The notes beneath the pieces are model-generated. The model saw only the letters and a list, made by a program, of their open reading frames with translations. It was not told the DNA's origin and did no database searches. Positions 1,760 to 41,665 of a stretch of DNA of 64,000 nucleotides are shown piece after piece. Origin of the DNA: a virus (taxonomy: Duplodnaviria > Caudoviricetes); the IMG/VR virus record IMGVR_UViG_3300010051_000550, positions 1 through 64,000 of that record; one strand, given 5' to 3'. A program made the translations under genes and the position numbers. Positions within the stretch are counted from its first letter, which is position 1; the number at the start of each line of letters is the position of its first letter.

Positions 1760-2804
1760 GGTGCACATCGTACCTAACTCATACCAGAAGCCGAATCTGT
1801 ACACGGATAAGTTGATGGCTTATCTGACCGGCGACGAATGGAAGACGCTGGACTATGCGCTCAGGAGAACGTTCGGGTTCCAGAAGCAGCGCGACCGGAT
1901 TAGCGTCAGCCAGTTCATGAACGGTAACGGCCGTCTGGACGATGAAGGCGCGCCGGTCGAGCTGGGAACCGGCTTGTCGCGGCCGGCGCAGATTCAGGCG
2001 TTGAACGAGCTGATGCGCTTCGGGATTCTTATTGAGATCGCCCCCGACTCACAGAAGCGCGGCCGTTTGTGGATGCTCCAGTTGGATGAGTCGCTCATCC
2101 GCTTCGACCTGCTCAGCGAACGCGCGTCGGAGCAGAAGGCGCTCGGCCGGCAGCGCACTGCCAAGGCGCGGGCAAGCCGGCCGACTGCTGCGGCGGCTAT
2201 CGGTCAGTCAGACATACCAGTGGAATCGGTTAGTCCCACTAACCAACATCGGTTAGTCCCACTAACCAACATCGGTCAGTCCGACTTACCAGTATCGGTT
2301 AGTCCAGCTAACCCACAGAAACCCAGAAGAAACAAAGGAGAAACCCAGAGAGAAAGCCAGTCCGAAGCGGGCGAGGCGGCCGTCGTCAGCGCGTGGCGGT
2401 TGCTGGTGAATCTATGCGGTGGCAATGAAGCGGTCGCGACGGATGTGTGGCGGCTTCAGGAGAAGTTCACGATGGTGACGCGGCTCAAGCGCCCGGACCC
2501 GGCGACGGACGCGGGGAGAGAGAAGCTGGTGAGCGAGTGGTGGCCGCATTTGCGCCAGGTGCTGGCTGAGGCCGACGACGATCTGGCCGTGGCCGAGGCG
2601 GCGATGCAGGAGGCTTTCCAGTCGATGACGGAGCGGCCGAAGCCGCTGACCGTGAGCGGGCCTCGCTCAATCGTGAACGTGACGAATGCGGTGCTGGCGG
2701 GGAAGCGTCGGGGGCCGAACGTCGGCGCGGGGAAGCAGCGGCCGAAGGGGTTTGCGGGGCTGGAGGCATATGCCAGCAGGCGAGGGCTGAACAATGGCAG
2801 TTGA
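1713..2804 (+). CDS. Replication initiator (lambda O / replisome-organiser-like)
   Basis: N-terminal wHTH signature LTGDEWKTLDYALRRTFGFQKQRDRISVSQF; central iteron-encoded repeats; start uncertain. Confidence 0.85.
   Translation: MASRETNCASGREGVEVHIVPNSYQKPNLYTDKLMAYLTGDEWKTLDYALRRTFGFQKQRDRISVSQFMNGNGRLDDEGAPVELGTGLSRPAQIQALNELMRFGILIEIAPDSQKRGRLWMLQLDESLIRFDLLSERASEQKALGRQRTAKARASRPTAAAAIGQSDIPVESVSPTNQHRLVPLTNIGQSDLPVSVSPANPQKPRRNKGETQRESQSEAGEAAVVSAWRLLVNLCGGNEAVATDVWRLQEKFTMVTRLKRPDPATDAGREKLVSEWWPHLRQVLAEADDDLAVAEAAMQEAFQSMTERPKPLTVSGPRSIVNVTNAVLAGKRRGPNVGAGKQRPKGFAGLEAYASRRGLNNGS
2199..2316. repeat. Iteron array, putative replication origin
   Basis: ATCGGT(T/C)AGTC units at 2199, 2225, 2248, 2271, 2294 (23-bp period); central copies contain the dyad GGTTAGT-ccc-ACTAACC. 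Confidence 0.85.
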
Positions 2805-3288
2805 TTACGAAGAGTATTGGGTACCGGCCAGCGAGGCGGAAGTGATGTGCATCATGGGGTACATGGTGGCGGCGTGGCCGAGGCAGGAGATTCCGGTGCA
2901 GACAGTGGCGGTTTACGTCGTGCAGATGCTGCGGAGCGGGCTGGCGGCGGATGTGCTGCTGCTGGCGGCGATGGCGCTGGTCGACGTCTCGACGTTTTTC
3001 CCCAGTGTGGCGGAGTGGCGGGCGAAGGCGGAGGAGATTCAGTCGCACCTGAAAATGTGGCTGGTGTCTTCGAACTACCTGAACCACGGCGAGGAGTGGC
3101 CGCTGCGGTTGCCGCCGGGGATGAAGGAAACGGTTATTGAACAAGGCAGGTTGTTTTTGGAGGTGGACGATGAGCAGGAAGGTTTTTTTCGACTACAGGG
3201 CTCTGCCGCTGGAGGAGATCGCGGAGCGCTACCAGCGCGGCGAGTCGTGGCGGGCGCTGGCGGTAGCTTACGGCTGTCCGGACGATAA
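2794..3288 (+). CDS. Helicase loader/inhibitor-like protein (SPP1 G39P-like)
   Basis: Directly after the initiator; motif ...STFFPSVAEWR is typical of this family. Confidence 0.55.
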   Translation: MAVDYEEYWVPASEAEVMCIMGYMVAAWPRQEIPVQTVAVYVVQMLRSGLAADVLLLAAMALVDVSTFFPSVAEWRAKAEEIQSHLKMWLVSSNYLNHGEEWPLRLPPGMKETVIEQGRLFLEVDDEQEGFFRLQGSAAGGDRGALPARRVVAGAGGSLRLSGR

Positions 3289-3439
3289 GTCGCTGCAAAC
3301 GCACGTGACGGCGAAGTTCCCGGAGTTGAAGGTGCGGGATCACGCGCAGGCGCAGCGGGCGCGTCGGGAGCGGGAAGGGGCCAAGCGGCGGCGGACGGCG
3401 GCTGAGAAGCCGCAGAGTAAGGGTTGGTGGCAACGATGA
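3170..3439 (+). CDS. Small HTH DNA-binding protein
   Basis: GGAGG RBS before ATG 3170; EEIAERYQRGESWRALAVAYG helix-turn-helix; basic C-terminus. Confidence 0.6.
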   Translation: MSRKVFFDYRALPLEEIAERYQRGESWRALAVAYGCPDDKSLQTHVTAKFPELKVRDHAQAQRARREREGAKRRRTAAEKPQSKGWWQR

Positions 3440-4899
3440 GACGGGAAATTTCGAGACGGGAGTTTTTGGGGTTGGGCGCGGCTGCTGCGGCTGCTGCGGC
3501 GTTAGGGCTGGGGCCTCTGCGAGGCGGGCCGGCATGGGCGGCTGCGCTCGGCGACGTGCCGGCGGATGAACTCCCTGTTGACGGCGGTGGCCGGGTGGAG
3601 CGGCCGAACATCCTGCACATCATGACTGATGATCAGGATTATCAGTCATGGGCGGAGAAGTACACGCTGGTAGATCGGCGTGGGGAGGCGCTGCTCGATG
3701 CCGACGGCAATCCGCGCCAGGAGTACGCGATGCGTTTCGCACGCAGCTTTCCCGAGGGCGGGTGGACGGACTTCACGCAGCATACCTGCACCAGCGCGAT
3801 CTGCGCTCCGTCGCGGGCGGCGATTCTGTCGGGCGTGCCGGCCAGGGAGCACGGAGTGACGAGGAACGGCCTCATCGGCAACCTGGACGAGACAAACACG
3901 CTGGCGACGTGGCTGGCGGCGGCAGGCTACCGGACGCATCTGCTGGGCAAGTACTCGTTCGGCAAAGGCGGCCGCAAGCACCCGACGCCGCCGGGCTGGA
4001 CGACTTTTCAAGGGCGTGGCGGGTTGGCGAGGTGGATTTTCCAGAAGGGGGCGGAGGAAATTTACCGGTCGGCGGCCGACGCGGAGCCGTGGGCTATGTT
4101 CCTGTGGCCGGTGGACCCGCATCGGCGGGCCAAGCCTGAGGCGAAAAACGCAAAGATTGCCCTGCGACCGCCGGCGCTGCCGGAGAACATCAACGAGGCG
4201 GACATGAGCGATAAGCCGAGCTGGGTTCGCAACGCGAAGATGCTGCCGGTTGGGAAGCTGCGCGCGGCCGAGCGGGAGCGGGTTCGCGGCTATCAGGCGT
4301 TGATGGGCGTGGATCAGGGGATTGAGCAGGTGATCAATGCGCTTAAGGCCACGGGGCAGTTTGAACGGACGATCATCATCATCACGGCCGATAACGGGGA
4401 GAGCTGGGGCAGCCACCGGCAATTCCACAAGGACATGATCTATGACGAAGCGGCGCGCGTGCCGCTGGCGATCCGCGTGCCGTGGCTGCAGGAGAATCGG
4501 GCCGAGGGCCGGGTGGTCTCGTCGCTGGATGTGACGGCGACGATTGTGGAAGCGTGCGGGCTGTCGGCCGGCCGGCCGCTGATGGGGAACAGTCTGCTGC
4601 CGATCATTGAGGATGGCGCAGCTCCCTGGGAGGGCGCGGCTTATGTGGAGAGCCACGGCAGTCCGGGGACGAGGGGTAAGGGACGCCCGGCGTTCAAGGG
4701 GCTGCGGGTCGGCGGCGATGCATGGGGGCACTACAGCTATGCGTGGTACCCGGACACGGACGAGGTGGAACTGTATGACCGGACGGCCGACCCGGCGCAG
4801 TTAGAGAACTTGGCCGGGCGTGCGGAGTACGCGGCCGTGCGGGTCGCGCTGGAGGCGAGGCTGGCCGAGTTTTTAGGACGGGCAGGGTATCAGAGTTAG
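3436..4899 (+). CDS. Tat-exported Cys-type sulfatase (N-acetylglucosamine-6-sulfatase-like)
   Basis: Twin-arginine signal SRREFLGLGAAAA...AWA; RPNILHIMTDDQ; CAPSR formylglycine motif; GKY; TADNG; ELYD...DP.QLENLA C-terminus. Confidence 0.92.
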   Translation: MRREISRREFLGLGAAAAAAAALGLGPLRGGPAWAAALGDVPADELPVDGGGRVERPNILHIMTDDQDYQSWAEKYTLVDRRGEALLDADGNPRQEYAMRFARSFPEGGWTDFTQHTCTSAICAPSRAAILSGVPAREHGVTRNGLIGNLDETNTLATWLAAAGYRTHLLGKYSFGKGGRKHPTPPGWTTFQGRGGLARWIFQKGAEEIYRSAADAEPWAMFLWPVDPHRRAKPEAKNAKIALRPPALPENINEADMSDKPSWVRNAKMLPVGKLRAAERERVRGYQALMGVDQGIEQVINALKATGQFERTIIIITADNGESWGSHRQFHKDMIYDEAARVPLAIRVPWLQENRAEGRVVSSLDVTATIVEACGLSAGRPLMGNSLLPIIEDGAAPWEGAAYVESHGSPGTRGKGRPAFKGLRVGGDAWGHYSYAWYPDTDEVELYDRTADPAQLENLAGRAEYAAVRVALEARLAEFLGRAGYQS

Positions 4900-4935
4900 G
4901 CGTTTGCGCGCCAACATTTAAAGGAGACAAAGACC

Positions 4936-6687
4936 ATGTTGGTTCACGTACCTATTGGACAGATCGACGATAACCCATTTCAAAAGCGCCAGGACTATGG
5001 CGATGTCGAGAGTCTCGCGGCCGACATCCAGCAGCGCGGGCTGCTACAGATCCCTCGCGGTCGAATACTTGACCACAACGCTCAGTGCATCACGCCTGAG
5101 GGGTCCCTGTCGATCACAGAACTCTTCGACCTGCGCGGTTATCGCGTCCAGCTGGCTTTTGGCCACCGGCGGCTGCGGGCGTTCCGTCATCTCAGCGAGA
5201 CGGCCGCAGGATGGAATACCATGCCGGTTTACATCGAGGCCCTCGACGACGACGCCATGCTCGACGCGGTATGGAGCGAAAACCAGCACCGCAGCGACAT
5301 CAACGCCATCGAGCAGGCCGAGCTACTGGCCGCCAAGCTCGAACGCGCCCGCGCTGACGGCGGCAACCAAACCACCGTCGCGGCCGAATGGCGGCTCGAC
5401 CGCAGCACCATCGCTAACAAGCTGCGCCTGCTGGAACTGCCGGCCGAAGTCCAGACGGCTGTCCGCGAGCGTCGGCTCTCTGAGCGACAGGCGCTGGCGC
5501 TATTGGGCGTCAAGGGCTTCGCGCAGCGCCTCAACGGAACCGAGGGCGTCCAGTGGTCGGCGGTCAAAGACCTTCATTACGGCTCGCCGCCTTCCCCTGA
5601 GACGTTCGTTGCTCTCGTCGTGGCCGACCCCGAAAGCTACACCAGCGACCGCATCCGCGACTACGTCGGCCGCGCCAGTCGGCACGCCGGTGAGGACTTG
5701 CCCGAGCCAATCGCCCTGACGCCGGTGGAGGCCGACGGCGTGGTGCAGCCGCTCTGCAAGGGCTGCCCGAAACGCTATGACCAATACTGCCTGCACCGGC
5801 CGTGCCTGGTCGTCAAGCAGCGAGCCATCGCCGAGCGAGCTGCCCGCACCGCGGCCGAGGATTTGGGGCTCCCCTACTCCGACGATCCGGAGCATTTCAA
5901 ATACTTTGACCGCTGGGATCGCAAGACCACGCTCAGGGAACTGCACAAGGCCAACATTACCGAAAATCTGGTCATCGGCTACAGCCTCGACTACGACGGC
6001 GGGGCCAGGCTCCATGACGACGGCTACAACCTGGCAAATATGTGGGTCGACGACGCACGAAAAACGGTCGTGCTCGGCCACCGGTTAGGTAAGCCCACGG
6101 CTGAGGAGTTGGCCTCGTTGCGCTCCGCGCCGGCCGATGAAGACGCCGAAGGCCCCGGACGGTCCTTGGTGGACTTCTGGAACAAGATGCGCCAGCAGAC
6201 CTGGGCTGCGCGAGAAGTGCGCGGCCAGGCGGCCGTGCGCGCGGTGCTCCACGACGGCATTGTCGACGACCGCGTGTGGCGCGTGCTCCACACAATGTTC
6301 ACCTGGGCGGGCGACTGGGGCCGGGTTACTGAGGTCGGGCAAGGGGAGGCCCTTCAGGCCATGTGGGACAGGATGTCAACCCCACTCTCCGATCTGGAGC
6401 GGTGGGTCGCGTTCCTGACGGCCGCTGGACTGAATCCCCACGCGGCCGAGTCGAATGACGAGCCGACGCGCCTCCGCGAGGCCGTTTATGACCTGGTATG
6501 GGCATGGTATCGAACCGCGGGCGACTACAGCCGGTGGCGAATCGCCTCGGACGTCGTGGCCCTCTGCGACGCGCTGGACGCCCATCCCAACGCGCTGCTG
6601 ACCGATGAGGCCCGCCTCGCGGCCGACTGGCTGCGCCGCGCCCGGCCGGAAGCCGAGCAATTGATGACGGAAAAGGAGAACTCATGA
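4936..6687 (+). CDS. ParB/Srx-like N-terminal domain protein with HTH and long C-terminal extension
   Basis: PIGQIDDNPFQKR, GHRRLRAF, ENQHRSDINAIEQA, HTH QTTVAAEWRLDRSTIANKLRLL. Confidence 0.85.
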   Translation: MLVHVPIGQIDDNPFQKRQDYGDVESLAADIQQRGLLQIPRGRILDHNAQCITPEGSLSITELFDLRGYRVQLAFGHRRLRAFRHLSETAAGWNTMPVYIEALDDDAMLDAVWSENQHRSDINAIEQAELLAAKLERARADGGNQTTVAAEWRLDRSTIANKLRLLELPAEVQTAVRERRLSERQALALLGVKGFAQRLNGTEGVQWSAVKDLHYGSPPSPETFVALVVADPESYTSDRIRDYVGRASRHAGEDLPEPIALTPVEADGVVQPLCKGCPKRYDQYCLHRPCLVVKQRAIAERAARTAAEDLGLPYSDDPEHFKYFDRWDRKTTLRELHKANITENLVIGYSLDYDGGARLHDDGYNLANMWVDDARKTVVLGHRLGKPTAEELASLRSAPADEDAEGPGRSLVDFWNKMRQQTWAAREVRGQAAVRAVLHDGIVDDRVWRVLHTMFTWAGDWGRVTEVGQGEALQAMWDRMSTPLSDLERWVAFLTAAGLNPHAAESNDEPTRLREAVYDLVWAWYRTAGDYSRWRIASDVVALCDALDAHPNALLTDEARLAADWLRRARPEAEQLMTEKENS

Positions 6688-13599: not shown

Positions 13600-13680
13600 C
13601 ATTGGGGGAGTGCAGTTGAGGGTGATTGTGGAAAATTATTAATTCATATAAAATAATACTATCAAATTTGCTCATTTCTA

Positions 13681-14994
13681 TTGACTATGAAACACAATAT
13701 CCACCCCGATCTCCTGCCCCTGGCGATGCCGATTGAAGAATGCCACCTTGACCCGGCCAATGCGCGCACGGGCCATAATGTGGAGCGTATTGCGGGGAGC
13801 TTGCAGCAGTATGGGCAGCGGAAGCCCATCGTCGTGAACCGCAGCGAGGCGGGCAAGATCGAGGCAGGCAACGGCACATGGCAGGCCGCGAAGTTGCTGG
13901 GCTGGACCCATGTCGCGGCGGTTGCCGTCGAGGATGATCCCAGCACGGCCGTGGGGTATGCGATAGCCGACAACCGGACTTCTGAGTTATCCCAGTGGGA
14001 CTACGAGGTGCTGCAGGCGTTGATAGACAGCCTCGATCCTGATCTCGGACTGGTGACGGGCTTCGAAGGGGATGAGCTGGAGGAGATGCTGCGGGCGGCG
14101 GGGATTGACCTCGGCGCGCCGGAGATTGGCGAACCGGGAGACGCCGAGCCACAGCTCGACCGGGCGGAGGAGTTGGCGGCCGAGTGGGGGGTCAAGCCTG
14201 GACAGATGTGGCGGCTGGCCAGCCGGACGGCCGGCCACGAGCATTTGATCATCTGCGGCAGCTCGACCGACGCGGCCGTTGTGCAGCGGTTGATGGGGGG
14301 CAAGCGGGCGGCGCTGTTCGCGACCGACCCACCCTACCTGGTCGACTACGACGGCACCAATCACCCGCAGGCGTGGAATGCGCCGGCCAACAAGACCAAG
14401 TCGATGAACAAGGACTGGTCGGAATCGTACAAGGACTGGGACTCGGCCGAGCAGGGGGTCGAGCTATATGACGGCTTCGTCTCGGTCGCGATTGAACACG
14501 CGATTGATCCGCACGCGGCCTGGTATTGCTGGCACGCGAGCCGGCGGCAGGCAATGTTGGAGGACGTGTGGGTGCGCCACGGGGCGTTTGTGCACCAGCA
14601 GATCATCTGGTTCAAGGATCGGCCGGTGCTGACGCGCAGCTTCTACATGTGGCAGCACGAGCCGTGCTTCTTCGGCTGGATCAAGGGCAATAAGCCGAAG
14701 CGTGCCGTCGACGAGTGGCTGGGGAGCGTGTGGTCGTTCCCGACGCAGACGGCGTTTGAGAAGACGGATCACCCGACGCAGAAACCGCTCCAATTGTTTG
14801 AGATTCCGATGCGGCAGCACACGGAGGTCGGCGATATCTGCTACGAGCCGTTCAGCGGATCGGGCACGCAGATTGTGGCGGCCGAGAATCTGGGCCGGCA
14901 GTGCCGGGCGGTGGAGCTTGCGCCGCCGTTTGTGGCGGTGGCGTTGCAGCGGTATTTGGATGCGTTTGAGATTCGGGCGGAGTTGGTGGAGTGA
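13681..14994 (+). CDS. ParB-like domain + N4/N6 DNA methyltransferase (beta class)
   Basis: N-terminal DPANARTGH/IVVN..IEAGNG/AIADNRTSEL; TDPPY catalytic motif; HPTQKP; YEPFSGSGT SAM motif. Confidence 0.92.
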   Translation: MTMKHNIHPDLLPLAMPIEECHLDPANARTGHNVERIAGSLQQYGQRKPIVVNRSEAGKIEAGNGTWQAAKLLGWTHVAAVAVEDDPSTAVGYAIADNRTSELSQWDYEVLQALIDSLDPDLGLVTGFEGDELEEMLRAAGIDLGAPEIGEPGDAEPQLDRAEELAAEWGVKPGQMWRLASRTAGHEHLIICGSSTDAAVVQRLMGGKRAALFATDPPYLVDYDGTNHPQAWNAPANKTKSMNKDWSESYKDWDSAEQGVELYDGFVSVAIEHAIDPHAAWYCWHASRRQAMLEDVWVRHGAFVHQQIIWFKDRPVLTRSFYMWQHEPCFFGWIKGNKPKRAVDEWLGSVWSFPTQTAFEKTDHPTQKPLQLFEIPMRQHTEVGDICYEPFSGSGTQIVAAENLGRQCRAVELAPPFVAVALQRYLDAFEIRAELVE

Positions 14995-15152
14995 CGCATT
15001 ACTACGCCTGGCGCAACAATGCGAAGCGAGCGCTGCTCTACAAGCGGCCGTGTCGCATCATTGCGGCCGGGAAGCTTGGTAGCGTGCTGGTTGAGTTCGA
15101 GGACGGCGGCCGGGAGGTGGTGTCGCGTCGAGCGCTGCGGAGGCTTAGGTGA
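14991..15152 (+). CDS. 53-aa conserved phage protein (absent from the ORF track)
   Basis: GTGA overlap; MTHYYAWRNNAKRALLYKRPCRIIAAGKLGSVLVEFEDGGREVVSRRALRRLR. Confidence 0.6.
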   Translation: MTHYYAWRNNAKRALLYKRPCRIIAAGKLGSVLVEFEDGGREVVSRRALRRLR

Positions 15153-15208
15153 TGGGGCGGACGAGAGAAGCCGGCAGGTGCCGGCTAAGAAGGTGAATGG
15201 TTCAGATG

Positions 15209-15493
15209 CTAGTCTTCGGGGACGCTGACGTAGCGGTTGGCGCTGGCGCACCAGTACAAGTTGTAGCCGTTGGGGCTGCGCTTTACCGGAGCAGGCTCGT
15301 CGCTGTTCTCTTGCGCAGCGATCAGGGCCTCGGCCGCTTTCGCTTGCAACTCTTCTATCTGGGCGCGCTTGGCGGCGAGGGCGGCGTCGGCGTGCTGGAC
15401 GGCTTCGGTGAGGCTGAAGCCGGATTTGAGCGAGAGCTTGTATTCGTTTTCCCAAGTCTTCCAAATCTGTCGTTCGGTCGGTTGCTTTTTCAT
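15209..15493 (-). CDS. Small hypothetical protein (cassette 3)
   Basis: GAGGAG RBS and its own promoter. Confidence 0.7.
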   Translation of the reverse strand: MKKQPTERQIWKTWENEYKLSLKSGFSLTEAVQHADAALAAKRAQIEELQAKAAEALIAAQENSDEPAPVKRSPNGYNLYWCASANRYVSVPED

Positions 15494-15524
15494 GGCGTAT
15501 CTCCTCGTATTGATGTGTGTCTAT

Positions 15525-15590
15525 CTGATGGACATGTTACTCGGACGGGGTACGAAGTCAAGGTCAATCGAATGTCTTTTGAATGTCTTT
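15525..15590 (-). promoter_or_regulatory. Repeated leftward promoter module, copy 1
   Basis: TTGACT (15556-15561), 16 nt, TAACAT (15534-15539); tandem AAAGACA boxes at 15573 and 15584. Confidence 0.75.
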
Positions 15591-15603
15591 TGGAGCGGGT
15601 CGT

Positions 15604-15638
15604 GACAGAGAGGAAGCGACCCGTTGCCGGGCCGCTGG
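15604..15638 (-). terminator. Repeated GCAA-tetraloop hairpin, terminator-like
   Basis: Minus strand GCGGCCCG-GCAA-CGGGTCGC plus pyrimidine tail; 34/35 identical to 15967-16001. Confidence 0.6.
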
Positions 15639-15661
15639 GGGTTGGGAAGAGGTTGTTCGGC

Positions 15662-15862
15662 TTATTCGTCGTTTTCGGTGAGGTACTGGAGGGCTTCCTT
15701 CAAGGTGTCCTCGGCCCTTCTTATATCGGAGAGGAAAGTACCCGCGAAGCTGGGGGCGCCGCGCAGGCGTTCCCGGTTGTGGATCATAACGGTGCGGATG
15801 TCATCCAGAAGAACCTCGATCATTTCTTGATGTTTTTCGTATTGCAGCAGTTTGTCGTTCAT
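15662..15862 (-). CDS. Small acidic helical protein (cassette 2)
   Basis: GGAG RBS, own promoter, downstream hairpin. Confidence 0.7.
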   Translation of the reverse strand: MNDKLLQYEKHQEMIEVLLDDIRTVMIHNRERLRGAPSFAGTFLSDIRRAEDTLKEALQYLTENDE

Positions 15863-15886
15863 TTTTCTCTCTCCGTAAGTGGTTTA

Positions 15887-15953
15887 CTGATGGACATGTT
15901 ACTCGGACGGGGGCAAAAGCCAAGGCTCAGTTCGATGTCTTTTCAGTGTCTTT
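15887..15953 (-). promoter_or_regulatory. Repeated leftward promoter module, copy 2
   Basis: TTGGCT (15918-15923), 16 nt, TAACAT (15896-15901); AAAGACA boxes at 15936 and 15947. Confidence 0.7.
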
Positions 15954-15966
15954 CGGGACGAGATGA

Positions 15967-16001
15967 GACAGAGAGGCAGCGACCCGTTGCCGGGCCGCTG
16001 G
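15967..16001 (-). terminator. Repeated GCAA-tetraloop hairpin, terminator-like
   Basis: Second copy of 15604-15638. Confidence 0.6.
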
Positions 16002-16024
16002 AAAGGTGGGGATGGAGTTGGGGG

Positions 16025-16276
16025 TTATTCGTCGTCGTCCTCGGCCTCAAACTGGTTGAGCTGCTCGATGATGTCATCGAGGTTGAGGTCGCCGCCGAGG
16101 AAACCGTGGTTGCTGCTGGCCATGATTTTCAGGTGGTCGAGGATGTAGGCCTCGGCCGCGTGGTCGCCGGAGCGCCGGACATACTCGTCGATGCGTTCAA
16201 TGGCGGCGTTCAGGTACTCCTGGGCTTCGGTGACCAGGTCGAGCAGGGCTTCTTTGTCAAAGGTTCGGGCAATCAT
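16025..16276 (-). CDS. Small acidic protein
   Basis: AAGGAG RBS; ATGA coupling; MIARTFDKEALL...EAEDDDE. Confidence 0.7.
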   Translation of the reverse strand: MIARTFDKEALLDLVTEAQEYLNAAIERIDEYVRRSGDHAAEAYILDHLKIMASSNHGFLGGDLNLDDIIEQLNQFEAEDDDE

Positions 16277-16512
16277 CGGGTCGTCTCCTTGCGGCCGAGT
16301 TCTCGGTCGACCGCGTCCTCGATCAGGCTCCAAAAATACTCTTCGCGCAGGCATCTCGTGCCGGCGGCGAGCAGCTCTTTGTACGCGTCCCGGGCTTCGT
16401 CGGTCTGGAAGATGAACTCGTCGTCATCTGCCTCGTCGGCGTGGTCGGCGATTAGCTCAGCGATCAGCTGGGCGATGGTGATGGGGCGCAGGTGGTTAAG
16501 CAAGTTGGTCAT
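16273..16512 (-). CDS. Small acidic protein
   Basis: GAGGAG RBS; MTNLLNHLRPIT...ADEADDDEF. Confidence 0.7.
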   Translation of the reverse strand: MTNLLNHLRPITIAQLIAELIADHADEADDDEFIFQTDEARDAYKELLAAGTRCLREEYFWSLIEDAVDRELGRKETTR

Positions 16513-16516
16513 GGTT

Positions 16517-16726
16517 TTACTCCTCATCGGTTACTTGCAGGAAGGTAAGCGCTTCTCGCAGGTGCTCTTCTACGTATCCAAGATCGCCAACGTAGGCCCA
16601 GTTGCTGCTATCGTCTCGGAAGCTGCGGCTGTGGTCGGCGACCAACTCGCTGAGTTGGCTCAGCATGCGCTGAACGTTGTCCTTGCGAGTTTGGTATTCC
16701 TTTTTCGTGGGCGTGTTGTTGATCAT
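16517..16726 (-). CDS. Small helical protein
   Basis: GGAG RBS after promoter copy 3; SNWAYVGDLGYV motif. Confidence 0.7.
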   Translation of the reverse strand: MINNTPTKKEYQTRKDNVQRMLSQLSELVADHSRSFRDDSSNWAYVGDLGYVEEHLREALTFLQVTDEE

Positions 16727-16748
16727 GTTTCTCTCCGTAAGTCGTTTA

Positions 16749-16815
16749 CTGATGGACATGTTACTCGGAACGGGCATAAAGCCAAGGCTCAATCTGGTGT
16801 CTTTTCAATGTCTTT
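16749..16815 (-). promoter_or_regulatory. Repeated leftward promoter module, copy 3
   Basis: TTGGCT (16780-16785), 16 nt, TAACAT (16758-16763); AAAGACA boxes at 16798 and 16809. Confidence 0.7.
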
Positions 16816-16825
16816 TTTAATCTAA

Positions 16826-17410
16826 ATGGAGCATGGTGGTATCGAGATGGACGATAATTCGGTTCGTTTGTGGGAAAGGGCGCATTTGGAGCCGACACGG
16901 TGGTTCTACCGTTTCGATACGTATTACCGGCCGTTGGGGCCGGAGCGGAGTCTCCTGACGGCCTACCGATTGTGGTGTCAGGCAGAAAAGGGCAGAAAGA
17001 GCGCGGCGGTCAGCGCGCCGACGAGCTGGCGGGAGGCGGCCGAGCAGTGGCAGTGGAAGGACCGGGCCGAGGCCTGGGACATGAGCCAGCGGCTGGAGCG
17101 ACTAAAGGAAGACGACGAGGCGCGGCGCAAGAACCGGGAGCGACGGCTGGCGGTGTTGAACGCGGTGATGGCGCGGGCTTCAGACGCGCTGGTGAGGTTG
17201 AAGACGGAGGACGCGCGCTGGGGCGACGTGATCGCCGCGATCCGGCTGGCGGTGCAGGAGCTTCGTCACGAATACGGTGACGACGTGACGACGGTCAAGG
17301 TGGAAGCGGTTGACACGGCGCCGGACTGGATGATGGTCATGGCTCGGATGGATTCGGATCAGCTGGAGAAAGTCATCTCCAATCTCGACATGGTGGATAG
17401 ATATGAGTGA
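16826..17410 (+). CDS. Terminase small subunit-like protein A
   Basis: F..YY.PLGPERSL...W...A..WQWKDRAEAWD pattern seen in TerS-like proteins; helical C-terminus. Confidence 0.55.
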   Translation: MEHGGIEMDDNSVRLWERAHLEPTRWFYRFDTYYRPLGPERSLLTAYRLWCQAEKGRKSAAVSAPTSWREAAEQWQWKDRAEAWDMSQRLERLKEDDEARRKNRERRLAVLNAVMARASDALVRLKTEDARWGDVIAAIRLAVQELRHEYGDDVTTVKVEAVDTAPDWMMVMARMDSDQLEKVISNLDMVDRYE

Positions 17411-17600
17411 TCAAACACCCGGCGCGGAACTGGACGAGGCGATGCGAGAGATGCTGGAGCACCTCCGCGCGTTGTTCGTCAGCACCCTGCCGGCACTTGT
17501 CGGTATTGAGGATTTGCTCGGTGTTCCTCCCGAGGAACAGTATGTGCGGCGCGAACGTCTGGAGCGGGGTGAGGACGGCGACACCGGATGTTACGTATAG
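17403..17600 (+). CDS. Hypothetical protein
   Basis: Overlap-coupled short ORF. Confidence 0.45.
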   Translation: MSDQTPGAELDEAMREMLEHLRALFVSTLPALVGIEDLLGVPPEEQYVRRERLERGEDGDTGCYV

Positions 17601-17622
17601 CCGTGATGGAGGTTGAGGCAGG

Positions 17623-17916
17623 ATGGAGCCAGGTGCGGGACATATAGACGCGGGACAGGATCGGGAGCGGCGCGACAAAGTCTATGCGTTCGTCTGTTCG
17701 TTTATGAAGGCCAGCGGCGGAGTTGCGCCTTCCGCGCGGGAGATTCAGCGCGGCACGGGGCTTCGCTCGCTGAATCATGTTCACGGCTGCCTGGGCACGC
17801 TGGAGCGTGAAGGGCGCATCCAGCGCGGCAAGTTCGGCCGGCCGCGCAGCCTGCGCATCGTGGGCGCTCGCTATTTGCTGCCGGACGAGGCGGAGGCGGG
17901 AGGTCGGGACAGATGA
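17623..17916 (+). CDS. LexA-type winged-helix DNA-binding domain only (no S24 peptidase)
   Basis: RRDKVYAFV...GGVAPSAREIQRGTGLRSLNHVHGCLGTLEREGRIQR....PRSLRI matches the LexA N-domain pattern. Confidence 0.8.
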   Translation: MEPGAGHIDAGQDRERRDKVYAFVCSFMKASGGVAPSAREIQRGTGLRSLNHVHGCLGTLEREGRIQRGKFGRPRSLRIVGARYLLPDEAEAGGRDR

Positions 17917-18611
17917 CAGCGAGAGGTGGAAGCGCGTCGGGTAAGCGCGTGCGAGCGGCCGAGCGGCGCGAGCGGGCGTGGGAGCTTCGCAAACGGGGAC
18001 TGACGTATCGGGCGATTGCCGAGCAGCTGGCGCCGGAGTTCGGTTCGTATTCGAAGTCGCAGGCGGAGCGGGACATCAAGCACACGCTCGACGAGTTGAA
18101 CGAGCGGACGCTGGAGACGGCGGCCGAGGCGCGGGCGATTGACCTGGCGCGGTTGGATGACCTGCTGCTGGCGTGGTTCGCCACGGCGCTGCGGGAGCAC
18201 GAGCGGCCGACGGCGACGCCGGCTCGTGGCGAAGGCGAGGAGGGTGATATCGTTTCGGCCTGGTTCGCGAAGGCGGTTAAGTCGGCCGCTGAAGGGAGCG
18301 AACCGGCCGAGGGGAGTGAGGCGGCCGGGAGCACGCCGCTTGACAACATCGACTGGAGCACGCTCTCGCCTATGGATTTGCTCGACGCGGTGCTCAAGAG
18401 GGCGCAGCTTTCTAAGCAGGCGACGGAGATCGTCCTCAAGATATTTGAGCAGCGAGCCAGGCTGCTGGGCTTGCACCGGCAGGAAGTGGCGCTGACGACG
18501 CCCAGCCCGCTACAGGTGGCGTCGGCGGTTGACCTGTCCGGGATGGATGAGGATGGCCTGAATGCAATCATCAGAAATCTCGCGGCTGCGCGAGGCGACG
18601 GCACGGATTGA
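17913..18611 (+). CDS. Terminase small subunit-like protein B (HTH)
   Basis: AERRERAWELRKRGLTYRAIAEQL...DLARLDDL...EQRARLLGL; immediately upstream of TerL. Confidence 0.7.
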   Translation: MTARGGSASGKRVRAAERRERAWELRKRGLTYRAIAEQLAPEFGSYSKSQAERDIKHTLDELNERTLETAAEARAIDLARLDDLLLAWFATALREHERPTATPARGEGEEGDIVSAWFAKAVKSAAEGSEPAEGSEAAGSTPLDNIDWSTLSPMDLLDAVLKRAQLSKQATEIVLKIFEQRARLLGLHRQEVALTTPSPLQVASAVDLSGMDEDGLNAIIRNLAAARGDGTD

Positions 18612-20268
18612 ATGGCAACGTCGCCAAGCGGCCGGGAATGGCCTCGCCGGCGCGGGGCAGCTGGATTTACTGACATGGACGGTGGTATATCGATGCTGGC
18701 TGCAACCGGGGCAACTATTCGACATAGCAGAGCACCTGTACCTGGTGGACATCTACAACAGCCGGGCGCGCGAGCTGGTGATCTTCAAGGCCGGTCAGAT
18801 GGGGGCCAGCGAGTTCGCTGTGAGTTACGCGCTGCACGCCTGCGACCAGGAGCGGGCGACGGTGCTCTACGTTTTCCCGACCGAGGACGACGTGAGCGAC
18901 TTCTCGACGTCGCGCATCAACCCGGCGCTGGAGGCCAGTCCGTACTTGAACCAGCTGGTGGTGCCCGGCGGCGGCGGCGGTGGGCGCGGCGCGGACCGGG
19001 TGACGCTGAAGCGAATCCGCGACCGGTTTCTGTATCTGCGCGGGGCGCGGGTGAGCAAGACGGGCCAGGCGTCGCAGTTGAAATCGGTGGCGGCCGACAA
19101 GGTTATCTTCGACGAGCTGGACGAGATGGACCCGCGCGCACCGGTTATTGCCGTCAAGCGGTTGGGCCACAGCGCCATCGGCGGGCGGCTGGACATTTCG
19201 ACACCCACCCACCCCGGTCGCGGGATTCACGCTCGCTGGCTGGAGTCGGATCAGCGGGAGTGGTTTGTGCAGTGCGCGGGATGTGGGGAGCGGCAGCCGC
19301 TGACGATCAACCAGCTGGTGAGCGAGTGGGACGAGCTGGAGCGGCCGGTGGCGTGGCACGGGATGAAGGACGGCCGCGCGTTCGTCGCCTGTCGCAAGTG
19401 CGGCCGGGAACTGGATCGGCTCGGTCGTGGCCAGTGGGTGGCGGCATATCCCGAGCGGCCGGTGACGGGGTTCCACCTGAGCAAGCTGTTTTCGTCGCGG
19501 ACGGACCTGATGTCGATCATCGCTCAGCTGCAGTCAGTGGACGAGAGCGTGCGGAAGGAGTGCTTCAATCAGGATTTGGGGCTGCCTTACAAACCGCGCG
19601 GCGGCAAGTTGAGCGAGGAGATGCTGGACGAGTGCCGGCGCGACTATGGGCATGGGCCGGAGCGCGGCGAGCGGCCGTTTATCGGCGTGGACGTGGGCAC
19701 GGTGCTGCACGTGGTGGTGCGCGGGCCGCTCAACGGCGAGGGGGAGCGGCCCCAGCGGTTTGCCGGCGAGTTGGCCAGCTTCGAGGAGTTGGGGCGGCTC
19801 ATCCGGCAGTATCGGCCGCGACGGGTGGTGATCGACGCGCTGCCGGAGACGCGGATGGCGCGGGCGCTGCAGGCGGATTTCCCGGATGGGCTGATCTGGC
19901 TGTCGTACTACACGGAGGGCAGCAAGGACGAAGCGGCCGTGCGGTGGGATCAGAAGAACGGCACGGTGCTGGTCGACCGGACGCGGGCGATGGACGCGAT
20001 GATCGCGGGGTTCTCGCCGGTGGTGCAGGAGAACACGCTGCCGGCCGGCGCGCGGGGTATCAGCGGCGGCAATTATTACCGGCACATGACGGAGCCGGTG
20101 CGCGTCGTGGAGACGGCCGCGGGCCGGGCAGGAACGGACGTGGCGCGGTATGTGTCGGAGAAGGCGGATCACTTCGCGCACGCGGAGAATTATTGTTGGG
20201 TGGCGAGCCAGTCGCCGAAGGCGCCACTGTTGGGCGTGGCGCTGGGTGTTGGGGTGAAGGGCTGGTAG
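18562..20268 (+). CDS. terL: Terminase large subunit (GpA-like)
   Basis: Walker A-like KAGQMGASE; Walker B VIFDELD; ISTPT; Zn ribbon CAGC/CRKC; RNaseH-like FIGVDVG ... DHFAHAENY. Confidence 0.9.
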   Translation: MQSSEISRLREATARIEWQRRQAAGNGLAGAGQLDLLTWTVVYRCWLQPGQLFDIAEHLYLVDIYNSRARELVIFKAGQMGASEFAVSYALHACDQERATVLYVFPTEDDVSDFSTSRINPALEASPYLNQLVVPGGGGGGRGADRVTLKRIRDRFLYLRGARVSKTGQASQLKSVAADKVIFDELDEMDPRAPVIAVKRLGHSAIGGRLDISTPTHPGRGIHARWLESDQREWFVQCAGCGERQPLTINQLVSEWDELERPVAWHGMKDGRAFVACRKCGRELDRLGRGQWVAAYPERPVTGFHLSKLFSSRTDLMSIIAQLQSVDESVRKECFNQDLGLPYKPRGGKLSEEMLDECRRDYGHGPERGERPFIGVDVGTVLHVVVRGPLNGEGERPQRFAGELASFEELGRLIRQYRPRRVVIDALPETRMARALQADFPDGLIWLSYYTEGSKDEAAVRWDQKNGTVLVDRTRAMDAMIAGFSPVVQENTLPAGARGISGGNYYRHMTEPVRVVETAAGRAGTDVARYVSEKADHFAHAENYCWVASQSPKAPLLGVALGVGVKGW

Positions 20269-20282
20269 GAGAGGGATGAGAG

Positions 20283-21869
20283 ATGGCAGAAAGTAACGCG
20301 TGGAGCAGGTTTTGGCAGGGGCGAGGGGCGACGGCGGCCAGGGAGCGGCAGCTTCGGAGGGGCGATCTTCAGGTCGGCGCGAGGGCGCTGGCGGGCGCGC
20401 GGGCGCGGCCGAAGGCGCCGGCCGGGTCGCGGGCGCGATTGACCCAGGACGGCAGCGCGCCCTACGGGGCGCTGTGGGGGCTGGCGTTGCAGGCAGATCG
20501 GGAGGTGGATTGGCAGGCGCTTGACCTGGACGCGCGGATGCTGGGGCGGATGTCGACCGGCGACCTGGTGGAGTTGATGGCGGATCTGTCGCCGGAGGTG
20601 AGCGGGGCGCTGTGGCATTTCACGCGGTTTTGCAATCCGGGCTGGGAGGCGCGGGCGCTGAAACCGGGTTCGCTGGTGGAGGACGCGACGGGCAAGAAGT
20701 TGCTGGACGCGTTCCTGGACAGGCTGAATGAGAAGTACGGCGCGGTGGACGTGGTGTGGAATTCGTTCTTCATGACCGCCTTCCTGCGCGGGGCGTTTTT
20801 CGGGGAGTTGGTGATGAGCAAGGACAGGCGGACGCCGCTGGACTTGATCGCCGTCGACCCATACGCGGCCGAGTATGTGCGGCGCGATGATCCGGAGTTG
20901 GGCGAGGTGTGGCAGTTGGGGCAGACGGTGGGCGGCCAGTTCAGGCCTTTGGACGTGCCGACGGTGCAGTATGTGCCGATTGACCCGCTGCCGGGTCGGG
21001 CGCCTTACGGCCGCTCGCTGGTGACGCCGGCGATTTTCTCGTCGCTGTTCCTGTTGGGGCTGCTCCATGACTTGAGGCGGGTTGTGGCCCAGCAGGGGTA
21101 TCCGCGCCTCGATCTGGAGGTGAGTCTGGCGCGGCTGACGGAGTCGATGCCTGAGGAGATTGACGACGACCCGGACAAGCAGCGGGAGTGGGTGCAGCTG
21201 GTCATCGGCCAGATCGCGGAGATGTTTTCGCAGTTGCAGCCGGACGACGCCTATGTGCACACGGACGTGGTGAAGGTGAACCGGCCGGTGGGCGCGGTGG
21301 ACGCGTCGAGCCTGGGCGCGGTGGACGCGCTGATCCGCTCGGTGGAGCGGATGGCGACGCGGGGGCTGAAGACGATGCCGCTGTTGATGGGCAGTAATGA
21401 GGCGGTGAGCGAGACGCACGCGAACCGGCAGTGGGAGATTCATGTGGCGGGCATCAAGGCGCTGCAGCACCTGGCCGAGCAGATGTTGAGCCACCTGCTG
21501 ACGCTGGCGCTGGAGGCGCAAGGCGCGCGGGTGGTGGTGGAGTTGCGGTTCGCGGAACTGCGGGAGAGCGAGGCGCTGCGGGACGCGCAGGCGGAATCGG
21601 CCGTTATCGACAACGCCATGCGGAAATACCTGGCGGGATGGATTAGCCAGGATGAGGCGGCGCTGGAGGTGACGGGGCACGCGCCGGACAGGGATCGGCC
21701 GCGGGTGATTGAGGTCGTGGGCGGGGCGGACATTGTCGACTTGAGCGTGGCTGAGGGCGGCGCAGACGCGCGCGGCCGGGAAGGGGTGTGGCGGCGGGAG
21801 CTGCTGGCGGAGATGGAGGCGGCGCGGGTGGCGTTGGAGAAGGTGATCGGAGAGGAGCGACATGGATGA
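20283..21869 (+). CDS. Portal protein
   Basis: Position after TerL; 528 aa; PYGRS motif; helical architecture. Confidence 0.8.
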   Translation: MAESNAWSRFWQGRGATAARERQLRRGDLQVGARALAGARARPKAPAGSRARLTQDGSAPYGALWGLALQADREVDWQALDLDARMLGRMSTGDLVELMADLSPEVSGALWHFTRFCNPGWEARALKPGSLVEDATGKKLLDAFLDRLNEKYGAVDVVWNSFFMTAFLRGAFFGELVMSKDRRTPLDLIAVDPYAAEYVRRDDPELGEVWQLGQTVGGQFRPLDVPTVQYVPIDPLPGRAPYGRSLVTPAIFSSLFLLGLLHDLRRVVAQQGYPRLDLEVSLARLTESMPEEIDDDPDKQREWVQLVIGQIAEMFSQLQPDDAYVHTDVVKVNRPVGAVDASSLGAVDALIRSVERMATRGLKTMPLLMGSNEAVSETHANRQWEIHVAGIKALQHLAEQMLSHLLTLALEAQGARVVVELRFAELRESEALRDAQAESAVIDNAMRKYLAGWISQDEAALEVTGHAPDRDRPRVIEVVGGADIVDLSVAEGGADARGREGVWRRELLAEMEAARVALEKVIGEERHG

Positions 21870-39072: not shown

Positions 39073-40290
39073 ATGGCCGAGATTCCATTTGAGGCATTGT
39101 TATTGGGACTGGAGAGCACGTCGGGAACCGGAGTCGCGCCGACGCATTATGCCAGTATGGTCGGCTCGTTGAAGCCGGTGAAGGAGCGGTACCGGCCGGA
39201 CGAGGCCAGGGGCACGCTGGTTGAGGCGTATCGCTCGAAGGTAGCTCGTGAGTGGAGCGAGTGGTCGGGCGAGGGGCCGCTGGATGTGTACCTGCTGCCG
39301 GTTCTGCTGAATATGTGCGTGACCGGCAACATGACGAGCCAGCCGACGACGCCCGGCGGCGCGACGAACGCGCGGCTGTGGACGTTCAAGCCGACGATCA
39401 ACGCCAATGACCTGAAGACGGCGACGATCTTCTGGGGCGACCGGAACGTGCAGATGTTCCGTGGCCGCTTCGGAACGCTGGACGAGCTGACGATTACGGC
39501 CGATGCCTCGGGCACGGATGGCTCGAAGATGTCGGCCAGCGGCCGGACGCAGATTCAGGATTACGAAGAGTACGACGTCTCAGCGATCTCGAAGGACAAC
39601 CCGGCCGAGGTGACCATCGGCACGCACTCGCTTCTGGCGGGCGATAAGGTGCGAATCGTCGGCGGTGAGATGGTGGAGCTGCACGATCTGGTGTTCACTG
39701 TGGCGAACCCGACGGGCACGACCGTTGAACTGGCGGGGATCGATTCGACCGGATATACGACCTACGTGGGGGGCGGCACGCTGGAGAAGGTGGCGCCGGC
39801 GTTCCCGTCCATCCTGACCGCGCCGCTGATCTCGGGGCCGGGGATGCAGATGTGGCTGGATACGTCCTCGGCGATTGGGTCGACGGAGATTTCGGGCCGG
39901 CTGATTTCGGCCGAGCACGTGATTCCGGTCAACTACGGGTACAAGCACCTCGCCGTCGGCCCGGCCGGCGCGAAGACGTACTCGCGGGTCGGCCGCAACA
40001 AGCGCTCGATCACGACTCGCGTGACGCTGGAACTGTTCGACATGGATCAGTATAAGTTGTTCCAGAACGAGACAAACACCAAGCTGCGAATCCGGCACAA
40101 CGGAGACTTGATCGAGGCCGGCTTCTACCACTACGTGGAAGTGGACACCTACGGGCCGTTGAACTTCACGGATTGGGGCGAGTTGGAAGGGACGAACCGG
40201 ACGCTGACGCTGGAAATACAGAGCCAATATGACGCGACGCTGGGGGCGGACTTCAGCGTGAAGGTGCAGAACGACCGGGCGACGCTTTAG
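39073..40290 (+). CDS. Major tail (tube) protein with an inserted E1-FCCH-like beta domain
   Basis: GLESTSGT start; insert AISKDNPAEVT..HSL..GDKVRI.G.M.EL...FTV...T..TVEL.GIDSTGY. Confidence 0.8.
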   Translation: MAEIPFEALLLGLESTSGTGVAPTHYASMVGSLKPVKERYRPDEARGTLVEAYRSKVAREWSEWSGEGPLDVYLLPVLLNMCVTGNMTSQPTTPGGATNARLWTFKPTINANDLKTATIFWGDRNVQMFRGRFGTLDELTITADASGTDGSKMSASGRTQIQDYEEYDVSAISKDNPAEVTIGTHSLLAGDKVRIVGGEMVELHDLVFTVANPTGTTVELAGIDSTGYTTYVGGGTLEKVAPAFPSILTAPLISGPGMQMWLDTSSAIGSTEISGRLISAEHVIPVNYGYKHLAVGPAGAKTYSRVGRNKRSITTRVTLELFDMDQYKLFQNETNTKLRIRHNGDLIEAGFYHYVEVDTYGPLNFTDWGELEGTNRTLTLEIQSQYDATLGADFSVKVQNDRATL

Positions 40291-40314
40291 TACGATTGCA
40301 ATACATTCCGTGAG

Positions 40315-40355
40315 GGAAGAGTATGGAAAGGCCTCGAATTCGAGGCCTTTTTGTT
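40315..40355. terminator. Terminator hairpin, left copy of an imperfect direct repeat
   Basis: GGAAGAGTATGGAAAGGCCTCGAATTCGAGGCCTTTTTGTT. Confidence 0.75.
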
Positions 40356-40426
40356 GAGATTGTACGATGATCAGAATGTCGATGAGCATCATTGATTAAG
40401 TTCTGGATGGACTATATCAATTATAA

Positions 40427-40855
40427 TTGACAGATCGAGTTCAAATGATCTATTATCCGGTTCCCTCAATCGAAATGAGCGCCCGGCAACATCGAGGGCG
40501 GGTGTCGAAAGTGCTAACTGGGCAAACAACCAATATGAGCGAAGAAAACAATGCCATCGAATTTAATATAGTCTGGGAATCGGATAGACACCTCCAGACG
40601 ATCTATGCCAATCACTTCTATATCACTCACGCTGGAGACGAGTTCTATTTGATGTTTGGCGAGCTACCGTCTCCAAATATTGCGAATATGGCCCCGGACA
40701 AAATAAGAGACTATCTTGGCGACAGTCTTGAGATCAGGCCCTTGGTACGGCTGGCTATCGCGCCTCAAACGATGCTCAGGATAGCCGAGGCCATACAAAC
40801 GAATGTGTCCAATTACATCGGGAAAAATATCGGTGGTAAGGACGATGAAGAATGA
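40427..40855 (+). CDS. DUF3467-like protein
   Basis: IYANHFYITHAGDEFYLMFG...PLVRLAIAPQT; likely start 40445 or 40535 because TATAAT lies at 40422-40427; low GC. Confidence 0.75.
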   Translation: MTDRVQMIYYPVPSIEMSARQHRGRVSKVLTGQTTNMSEENNAIEFNIVWESDRHLQTIYANHFYITHAGDEFYLMFGELPSPNIANMAPDKIRDYLGDSLEIRPLVRLAIAPQTMLRIAEAIQTNVSNYIGKNIGGKDDEE

Positions 40856-41301
40856 GCACCCTAACTCTAAGAGTTGATCCATTTTCCGGAACCGGCCTAA
40901 ATAGAGGACATCAGAAGATCGGCGATCTGCCAGCAATCTATCGCCGCAAGACAAATACAACGGCCCGCCCTAAGGTTACTCTGAGCGATGAGTCCAACTC
41001 GTCAACCGATACCGATTCAGGGGTCACATATCTTGTAGGACAAGGCGGGATCGACGGTGAATGGAAGCTCTTACAACCTCTCTCCATCGTCATAGAAATT
41101 GACGAGGACGGCGATTACATTGTGTCCGACAAAGTGTTCTCTAGATACGGTGTAGGTGCAACTGTGCTGGAGGCATTTAAGGACTTCATATCCGATCTAA
41201 CCACGTACTACACGATTGTTGCTGAGTCCGCGGCGCACAATCCGGCCGCGGCAGCGTTGTTAGAGGAGATTCAACAGTACCTTCAACGAGCAGATGGCTA
41301 A
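40852..41301 (+). CDS. HicB-like antitoxin with N-terminal extension
   Basis: IVIEIDEDGDYIV....YGVGATVLEAFKDF partial RNaseH fold pattern; ATGA coupling. Confidence 0.65.
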   Translation: MSTLTLRVDPFSGTGLNRGHQKIGDLPAIYRRKTNTTARPKVTLSDESNSSTDTDSGVTYLVGQGGIDGEWKLLQPLSIVIEIDEDGDYIVSDKVFSRYGVGATVLEAFKDFISDLTTYYTIVAESAAHNPAAAALLEEIQQYLQRADG

Positions 41302-41312
41302 ATACGTCTCAA

Positions 41313-41609: not shown

Positions 41610-41621
41610 GTTCCCTGCGAA

Positions 41622-41665
41622 GGAAGAGTATGGAAAAGCCCCTCGAAATCGAGGGGCTTCTTGTT
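41622..41665. terminator. Terminator hairpin, right copy of the imperfect direct repeat
   Basis: GGAAGAGTATGGAAAAGCCCCTCGAAATCGAGGGGCTTCTTGTT. Confidence 0.75.

Follow-up and report, generated by a model that had tools for sequence, protein, structure and literature searches.

Among T4-type phages, the promoter and stem-loop elements known as PeSLs are composite cassettes in which a sigma70-like promoter is combined with a stem-loop and which mediate modular shuffling; an A/T-rich stretch lies upstream of their -35 hexamers (PMC2839356), and their role and composition in T4-type phages have also been treated elsewhere (PMC4122927). Morons, the other closely comparable kind, are independent units with their own promoter, gene and 3' hairpin (PMC3594210). 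Here, we describe a locus of similar organization in the IMG/VR record IMGVR_UViG_3300010051_000550, a 79,666-bp provirus that is a prophage of an uncultured Chloroflexota bacterium and whose first 64 kb (positions 1 to 64,000) are called the window below. Reading of the minus strand from 14800 to 17300 and listing of its open reading frames (ORFs) gave three tandem leftward units (g1-g2-g3, g4 and g5), each headed by one copy of the same module (Table 1). The array thus reads as three separately promoted units built from one portable regulatory module, and it is probably a moron- or PeSL-like system of portable promoter-terminator cassettes with a phased direct-repeat operator.

The module covers about 110 bp and runs from phased 11-nt units (AAAGACAYYGA) through a promoter with conserved flanks to a leader with a ribosome-binding site. 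An initial sequence-only reading of this DNA had described three copies with boxes 11 bp apart, a TTGRCT-16 nt-TAACAT promoter and an invariant 21-bp core, and all of these were confirmed. The two-box pattern (AAAGACA, 4 nt, AAAGACA) has three copies, all on the minus strand, for a shuffle mean of 0.12; the core is exact in the three modules, with 0 expected; and the promoter pattern was found in all three by alignment, while the promoter scan reports P3. The alignment of P1 to P3 has a mean column identity of 80%, with the boxes, the -35, the -10 and the flanks of the -10 invariant. No further two-box copy was found in the whole 79,666-bp record with two mismatches allowed. The promoter is of the housekeeping-sigma type; its hexamers are a moderate match to the sigma70 consensus, at 9 of 12 positions for P3. 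Since one cis-regulatory module is common to the three units, the co-regulation proposed by the sequence-only reading is a fair suggestion.

The PeSL comparison made in that reading was apt. The promoter and stem-loop composite is repeated, with three modules of which two are directly preceded by the conserved hairpin, and it is also found in relatives. In both systems, small genes without assigned function are preceded by a repeated composite in which a stem-loop and a ribosome-binding site accompany a sigma70-like promoter with A/T-rich sequence upstream, and in both the gain, loss or replacement of genes between relatives is bounded by the motif. Like morons, the units may be independent, each having a promoter-like module and a 3' hairpin (here without a U-tract), and they lie between gene blocks that adjoin each other in related phages: three related contigs (L025, L029 and L030) lack cassettes 2 and 3, and there the convergent methyltransferase block comes immediately after g3, without g4 or g5. 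In contrast to morons (PMC3594210), all units reuse one promoter module, and the first of them is a conserved unit, not an addition. The kind is therefore known, that of PeSL and moron cassettes, and what is new here is the low copy number (one to three per genome, three in 79.7 kb, versus about 50 in T4-type phages, where the copies are concentrated in hyperplastic regions), the host (a temperate Chloroflexota provirus with another gene set versus a lytic T4-like myovirus), the upstream hairpin (23 to 40 nt before the boxes versus inside or overlapping the promoter) and the phased operator, with two to four 11-nt direct repeats and an invariant GACA in the upstream region. For PeSLs, promoter and terminator activity and the formation of mini-circles have been demonstrated; the promoters and terminators here are predictions. 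If this reading is true, the PeSL/moron principle, by which a conserved promoter-terminator unit expresses accessory genes and doubles as a recombination handle, would hold not only in T4-like coliphages but also in temperate phages of a phylum that has received little study, and the phased 11-nt repeat with its promoter would provide a compact, testable cis-element for organisms with almost no characterized promoters or regulators.

To compare the module among phages, relatives were searched by pattern (two boxes plus the -35 context), which gave seven true metagenome contigs and one IMG/VR contig, and a g3 profile search added two contigs from metagenome-assembled genomes (MAGs), one labelled Ardenticatenia and the other Bauldia, the latter label being taken to be a binning error. 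In total, 15 modules were found in nine contigs of uncultured phages, some of them from Chloroflexota MAGs; more distant g3 homologues come from MAGs of Anaerolineae, other Chloroflexota and Planctomycetota. The geometry was equal in all 15 modules, with two to four AAAGACAYYGA units in strict 11-nt register. Among the 37 in-register units, for which GAC served as the search anchor, A follows GAC in 36 and AAA precedes it in 31 to 32. Packaging-side modules have two, three or four units and internal modules always two. The distance from the proximal box to CCTTGRCT is fixed in 14 of the 15 modules (it is 1 nt shorter in P3), as is the spacing between -35 and -10. The C-rich spacer between the hexamers varies in sequence, as expected of a promoter, and the block around TAWCAT is conserved. 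When the window was compared with contigs L023, L024 and L031, nucleotide identity was 82 to 93% for the module, 64 to 78% for the cargo genes, 74% for the terminase-small-like gene and 79% for the methyltransferase; because this noncoding element is better kept than the genes around it, the module is under selection. No exact 21-bp core and no boxes-plus-(-10) pattern was found in IMG/VR, and no module in the stretches or records examined of the nearest IMG/VR terminase relatives (55 to 80% identity). The closest of these, L004/L017, has no module in a contig that ends 645 nt upstream of its terminase-small-like gene, and a plus-strand gene of 137 aa, not the array, lies directly upstream of that gene. 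Comparison of 13600-21000 with 50,697 phage records by blastn gave no match, and Rfam at a permissive threshold found nothing in 14500-17500.

The order of cassettes differs among these phages. Listed after the packaging-side promoter, with P for a promoter module and T for a hairpin, the window reads P g1 g2 g3 T / P g4 T / P g5 T; L031 reads P g1 g2 g3(long) T / P g4 g5(short); L024, P g1 g2 g3 T / P g4 g5, with a g4-g5 gap of 21 nt; L023, P g1 g2 g3 / P g4 T; L022, P g1 g2 g3 T / P g5' plus a W-rich gene; L026, P and the W-rich gene only; and L025, L029 and L030, P g1 g2 g3 only, directly followed by the methyltransferase block. Unit 1 is therefore present in eight of the nine contigs, L026 being the exception, and beyond it there is nothing, g4, g4 and g5, g5' and the W-rich gene, or the W-rich gene alone. 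This amounts to one to three cassettes per contig and six cargo combinations, in contigs that are short and with breakpoints not mapped to the base. The hairpin-promoter unit between g4 and g5 is found in the window only, and no relatives of g4, g5 or the W-rich gene were detected in IMG/VR. The proposal that the cargo is exchangeable, varying behind constant repeats, thus stands for cassettes 2 and 3 and fails for cassette 1. The leaders tell a similar story, with the same leader type before different genes and the same gene behind different types: type A heads g1, g4 or g5', and type B heads g1 in L025 and L029 and g5 in the window, with a shortened form before the W-rich gene of L026. Recombination at the modules would be expected to leave such a re-assortment of leaders, together with the differences in cassettes. 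Neither an integrase nor an attC-like element, as in integron-type cassettes, was noticed beside the array, where no formal test was run.

Part of the array travels with its surroundings. The gene for a ParB-methyltransferase fusion accompanies g1-g3 in all relatives with enough flank, within a few kilobases of the module, and a gene for a protein consisting of a LexA DNA-binding domain only lies at most 3 kb away in all six module contigs with enough flank (PF01726; the window and five relatives). The window record and the 48.9-kb and 45.6-kb contigs of L029 and L030 have the methyltransferase, g1-g3 and a few scattered genes in common, and their terminases differ. The block was located on three contigs, at 13681-17916 in the window, 1787-5008 in L043 (G002:C1) and ~16000-18300 in L040 (G003:C1). 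Because these elements co-occur across differing backbones, the unit of inheritance appears to be the LexA-domain protein, the ParB-methyltransferase, g3-g2-g1 and the module, a block that sits at the packaging-gene border in a clade of uncultured Chloroflexota phages.

The sequence-only reading had also noted a GCAA-tetraloop hairpin after the genes, and both copies were recovered (T1 and T2, with 0 expected). They fold with -20.6 kcal/mol (z -3.8) for T1 and -17.9 kcal/mol (z -2.6) for T2. In relatives, the hairpin is kept with compensatory changes in the stem (CCCG/CGGG to CCTG/CAGG in L022 and G.U to A-U in L023), and the C/T-rich tail that follows it is conserved. We infer that these hairpins are weak terminators, attenuators or 3'-end stabilizers that delimit the units. 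A canonical bidirectional terminator is found elsewhere in the same phage (13553-13611). The post-hairpin tail CCTCTCT (15960-15976 and 15597-15613, minus strand) complements the purine-rich ribosome-binding stretch (GGAGAGAG) of the next leader, the leaders compared being those at 15866-15880 and 16730-16740, and it could mask the ribosome-binding site of the next unit in read-through transcripts.

The five ORFs of 66 to 94 aa are indeed small and mostly acidic, with predicted isoelectric points of 4.2 to 5.8 and four of the five clearly acidic. A plus-strand ORF of 542 codons (15197-16825) is open antisense to the five genes and three modules, with g1, g3, g4 and g5 sharing one frame, and relatives likewise have long antisense ORFs over the array. 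In codon alignments of all five families, differences between orthologues were most frequent at minus-strand codon position 3, fewer at position 1 and fewest at position 2, whereas a gene on the plus strand in the aligned register should show the reverse. The small leftward ORFs are therefore real genes; the same counts rule out the 542-aa ORF, which is an antisense by-product of G+C-rich sequence. The cargo had been described as mutually unrelated, which is wrong for one pair: g1 and g4 are paralogues (BLASTP E value of 2e-4; hhalign profile-profile probability of 94%, E value of 1.3e-7 over 59 columns), and part of the array therefore grew by local duplication. A homologue of 94% identity exists for g1. 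The g3 family, made up of unnamed metagenome proteins in short and long forms, has more than 187 clusters, and g5 is rare, with nine clusters. The structural model of g3 (60 sequences; pLDDT of 86) has three helices and an acidic tail that is disordered. A peptide formed by the last 20 or so C-terminal residues (W...RYVxVP with an acidic end) is found on g5 in the window (15209-15280, minus strand) and in L024, and at the end of g3 in L025 (3500-3586), L029 (7520-7601), L031 (2334-2429) and P0069, the g5 of L031 being without it. The movement of this peptide between g3 and g5 suggests that both may act on the same partner.

Searches for a function of the cargo were negative. Pfam detected no domain and no helix-turn-helix (HTH) in the five proteins, PHROGs gave no function and a single family of unknown function (for g1 only), and PADLOC had no match. 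Profile searches against PDB returned only noise (for example, proteasome alpha at an E value of 0.006), ESM Atlas gave hypothetical viral clusters only for g3, and Foldseek with the confident g3 model found no match in PDB or BFVD at an E value of <=0.001. There was thus no similarity to known defence or anti-defence families in PADLOC, Pfam, PHROGs, PDB or Foldseek (the latter for g3 only), and no dedicated anti-defence library was searched.

These results bear on the reading of the locus as an anti-defence or host-takeover island, in which the small acidic proteins would inhibit host immunity as DNA mimics, anti-CRISPR or anti-restriction proteins, co-activated by a regulator binding the direct repeats. 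The proteins are small, helical and acidic, the three helices of g3 are followed by an acidic, disordered tail, the cargo of the add-on units varies, and g1-g3 always adjoin the orphan ParB-methyltransferase, likely an anti-restriction factor itself, and move with it between backbones. However, besides the lack of similarity to known families and structures in the searches made, g1-g3 are conserved and widespread (g3 with its >187 clusters), as would be expected of a core function of the phage more than of counter-defence genes with fast turnover, and the units contain no Aca-like HTH gene. The array differs from acr-aca operons also in its boxes, which are direct and not inverted repeats. The acidity of the proteins and their linkage to the methyltransferase make an anti-defence role possible, but as an account of the whole array the island remains doubtful. 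This widespread and unannotated g1-g2-g3 operon, tied genetically to an orphan ParB-methyltransferase, is a reasonable target in the search for new functions in phage-host interaction.

The arrangement of the boxes suggests a protein-binding site. The predicted centres of the units, near -50, -61, -72 and -83, fall on one face of the helix, positions at which upstream activators of the class I type sit. Operators of OmpR/PhoB-type regulators, such as Pho boxes, consist of tandem 11-bp direct-repeat units adjoining the -35, and the boxes resemble them in having seven conserved and four less conserved nucleotides per unit, an 11-bp period and at least two units next to the -35. However, no OmpR-type domain (Trans_reg_C, PF00486) was found in the phage record, and the carrier MAGs have no sign of a host regulon: the exact two-box site was not found elsewhere in the 5.3-Mb and 2.5-Mb MAGs that carry relatives, and among 401 sampled genomes of the phylum the module was present in one, the carrier itself. 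The operator of a host regulon was rejected on these grounds, and the factor is therefore probably encoded by the phage, within the mobile block. A promoter for a phage sigma factor was rejected, since the record has no Sigma70_r2 match, and so was a promoter of the extracytoplasmic function (ECF) type, since the distance of about 24 nt between the GAAC upstream of the -35 and the conserved CCGAG is too great, and P1 and P3 have no GAAC. The search of the record for a single-subunit (T7-like) RNA polymerase gave no match, but its control also failed, and it is hence uninformative.

The LexA-domain-only protein is at present the best candidate for binding the boxes, as a lead. A precedent comes from GIL01, a phage whose late promoter P3 is activated by gp6, a truncated homologue of LexA, from a site next to the -35 (PMC6182141). 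Both are phage-encoded proteins with only the DNA-binding domain of LexA, and the predicted site here is likewise just upstream of a weak-to-moderate SigA-type promoter. Host RNA polymerase would read all three promoters, and a sequence-specific factor on the phased boxes, most likely acting as an upstream activator and best represented by the LexA-domain-only protein, would set their common timing.

Alternatively, the boxes could be an A/T-rich UP-element or a phased A-tract bend that boosts transcription via the alpha subunit of the polymerase, with no dedicated factor. The boxes, at about -47 to -64, lie in A/T-rich DNA within a genome of ~62% G+C, with A-runs every 11 bp, and PeSL promoters are also A/T-rich upstream of the -35 (PMC2839356). 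Yet each unit keeps a fixed G and C (GAC being the anchor of the search) while the A-run decays, as in CAGACC, ATGACA and TTGACA in L031; a conserved GACA is not predicted by an element defined by A/T alone; and two to four units in strict 11-nt register look like cooperative protein sites. We consider an UP-element unlikely.

A broader proposal combines these elements: Chloroflexota phages would plug in and co-activate small genes via a portable hairpin-operator-promoter unit, the LexA-domain-only protein would read the GACA repeats, g1-g2-g3 with the ParB-methyltransferase would form a transferable counter-defence island, and the W...RYVxVP peptide would mark a shared target or complex. The conjunction of all these parts is rather unlikely.

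A simpler origin of the array would be plain tandem duplication, i.e., a promoter-gene unit that was locally duplicated and diverged, in which case phages would exchange nothing here and the repeats would play no particular part. The paralogues g1 and g4 follow the same type of module and leader, the T1-P2 junction shares ~85% identity with the T2-P3 junction over 67 nt, and the -10 variant is uniform within each of the five multi-module genomes compared (window, L022, L023, L024 and L031), TAACAT in three and TATCAT in two. This uniformity suggests homogenization between copies or co-variation with a factor. On the other hand, g5, the W-rich gene, g2 and g3 are unrelated to g1 and g4; the P3 leader matches the g1 leader of L025 and L029 and not those of its own P1 and P2; and the module heads the W-rich gene in L026 instead of g1-g3, and g5' with the W-rich gene in L022. 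Apart from the -10, orthologous modules are closer between genomes than modules within a genome, P2-type modules being 91 to 96% identical across phages and closer to each other than to P1 of their own genome. Duplication alone is thus quite improbable. Under the portable cassette system that we favour, unit 1 is an old conserved operon and units 2 and 3 are add-ons, with g4 derived from a duplication of g1 together with its promoter; g5, presumably co-transcribed with g4 in relatives, gained its own hairpin-promoter unit in this phage. The repeated modules would supply the homology for gain, loss and exchange of cassettes, as in T4-type PeSLs and lambdoid morons. Finally, some ParB systems use arrays of short heptamer boxes, and the module always lies within a few kilobases of the ParB-methyltransferase and moves with it between backbones, but that the boxes are centromere-like or targeting sites for this protein, with a secondary link to the promoter, is very improbable given the fixed distance from box to -35 in 14 of 15 modules (P3 1 nt shorter), internal ones included, and the detection of only the N-terminal domain of ParB.

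Several points weigh against a portable cassette system with a dedicated operator. The -35 is degraded in L030, and T1 and T2 were not called by the terminator scan, being followed by a C/T-rich stretch and not a proper U-tract. Recombination at the modules is deduced from mosaic patterns in short metagenome contigs, and promoters, start sites and termination are all predictions from sequence. The LexA candidate was chosen by co-occurrence, in related and non-independent phages, and the site of GIL01 gp6 is one palindrome at -43.5 (PMC6182141), whereas the predicted site here has two to four direct repeats at about -50 to -83.

Table 1. Features of the cassette array and its flanks in the window (P, promoter module; T, hairpin).
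Feature	Position	Strand	Description	Basis
Unit 1	P1 (16815-16749) to T1	-	P1, g1, g2, g3, hairpin T1	sequence reading
Unit 2	P2 (15953-15887) to T2	-	P2, g4, hairpin T2	sequence reading
Unit 3	P3 (15590-15525) to T3	-	P3, g5, hairpin T3	sequence reading
Module P1	16749-16815	-	two-box site 16798-16815 (boxes 16815-16809 and 16804-16798); -35 TTGGCT 16785-16780; -10 TAACAT 16763-16758; core to 16749	
P1 leader		-	downstream of core; GGAGAG ribosome-binding site	
Module P2	15887-15953	-	boxes 15953-15936; -35 15923-15918; -10 15901-15896; core at 15887	
Module P3	15525-15590	-	boxes 15590-15573; -35 TTGACT 15561-15556; -10 15539-15534; core at 15525; type B leader	
g1	16517-16726	-	69 aa, acidic, helical, net charge -5; conserved first gene of unit 1; g4 paralogue	
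g2	16273-16512	-	79 aa, net charge -10; conserved second gene of unit 1	
g3	16025-16276	-	83 aa, net charge -15; start overlaps g2 stop (ATGA)	
g4	15662-15862	-	66 aa, net charge -5; g1 paralogue	
g5	15209-15493	-	94 aa, net charge -1; basic N-terminal part; C-terminal W...RYVxVP motif	
Hairpin T1	15977-16000	-	10-bp GC-rich stem, GCAA loop, C/T-rich tail; closes unit 1	
Hairpin T2	15614-15637	-	T1 copy with one mismatch; closes unit 2	
Hairpin T3	15169-15186	-	7-bp stem, sequence unrelated to T1/T2; between g5 and convergent rightward genes	
ParB-N domain/N6_N4 DNA methyltransferase fusion	13681-14994	+	convergent with array	Pfam/PHROGs scan
53-aa ORF		+	left flank; convergent with array	
Terminase-small-subunit-like gene	16826-17410	+	divergent from P1	
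LexA-domain-only protein	17623-17916	+	97 aa; LexA DNA-binding domain only	PF01726 above cut-off
phrog_645 protein		+	right flank; divergent from P1	PHROGs
Large terminase	18562-20268	+	right flank	

At the border with the packaging genes, the start of the terminase-small-like gene lies 10 to 35 nt from the distal box (window 16816-16850 and relatives), with no recognizable rightward promoter; the packaging genes may rely on transcripts that run on from the methyltransferase operon across the array in antisense, or on the box region itself. A distant terminase relative, L013, has an intergenic repeat of its own, a C-rich stretch with a GGAGAGGGGAG-type hairpin in four to six copies (1884-5675), which may be an analogous repeated regulatory unit, as well as 16-nt tandem repeats of the AAGTGCGAAGTG type at 947-1058 and 6500-6568. 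About 22 tandem copies of a 24-nt unit occupy the start of the locus of another relative (L012:4-765). Elsewhere in the window, a low-G+C island (41804-45142 and 40001-44000; 44 to 49% versus ~62%) contains a minus-strand ORF of 1112 aa.

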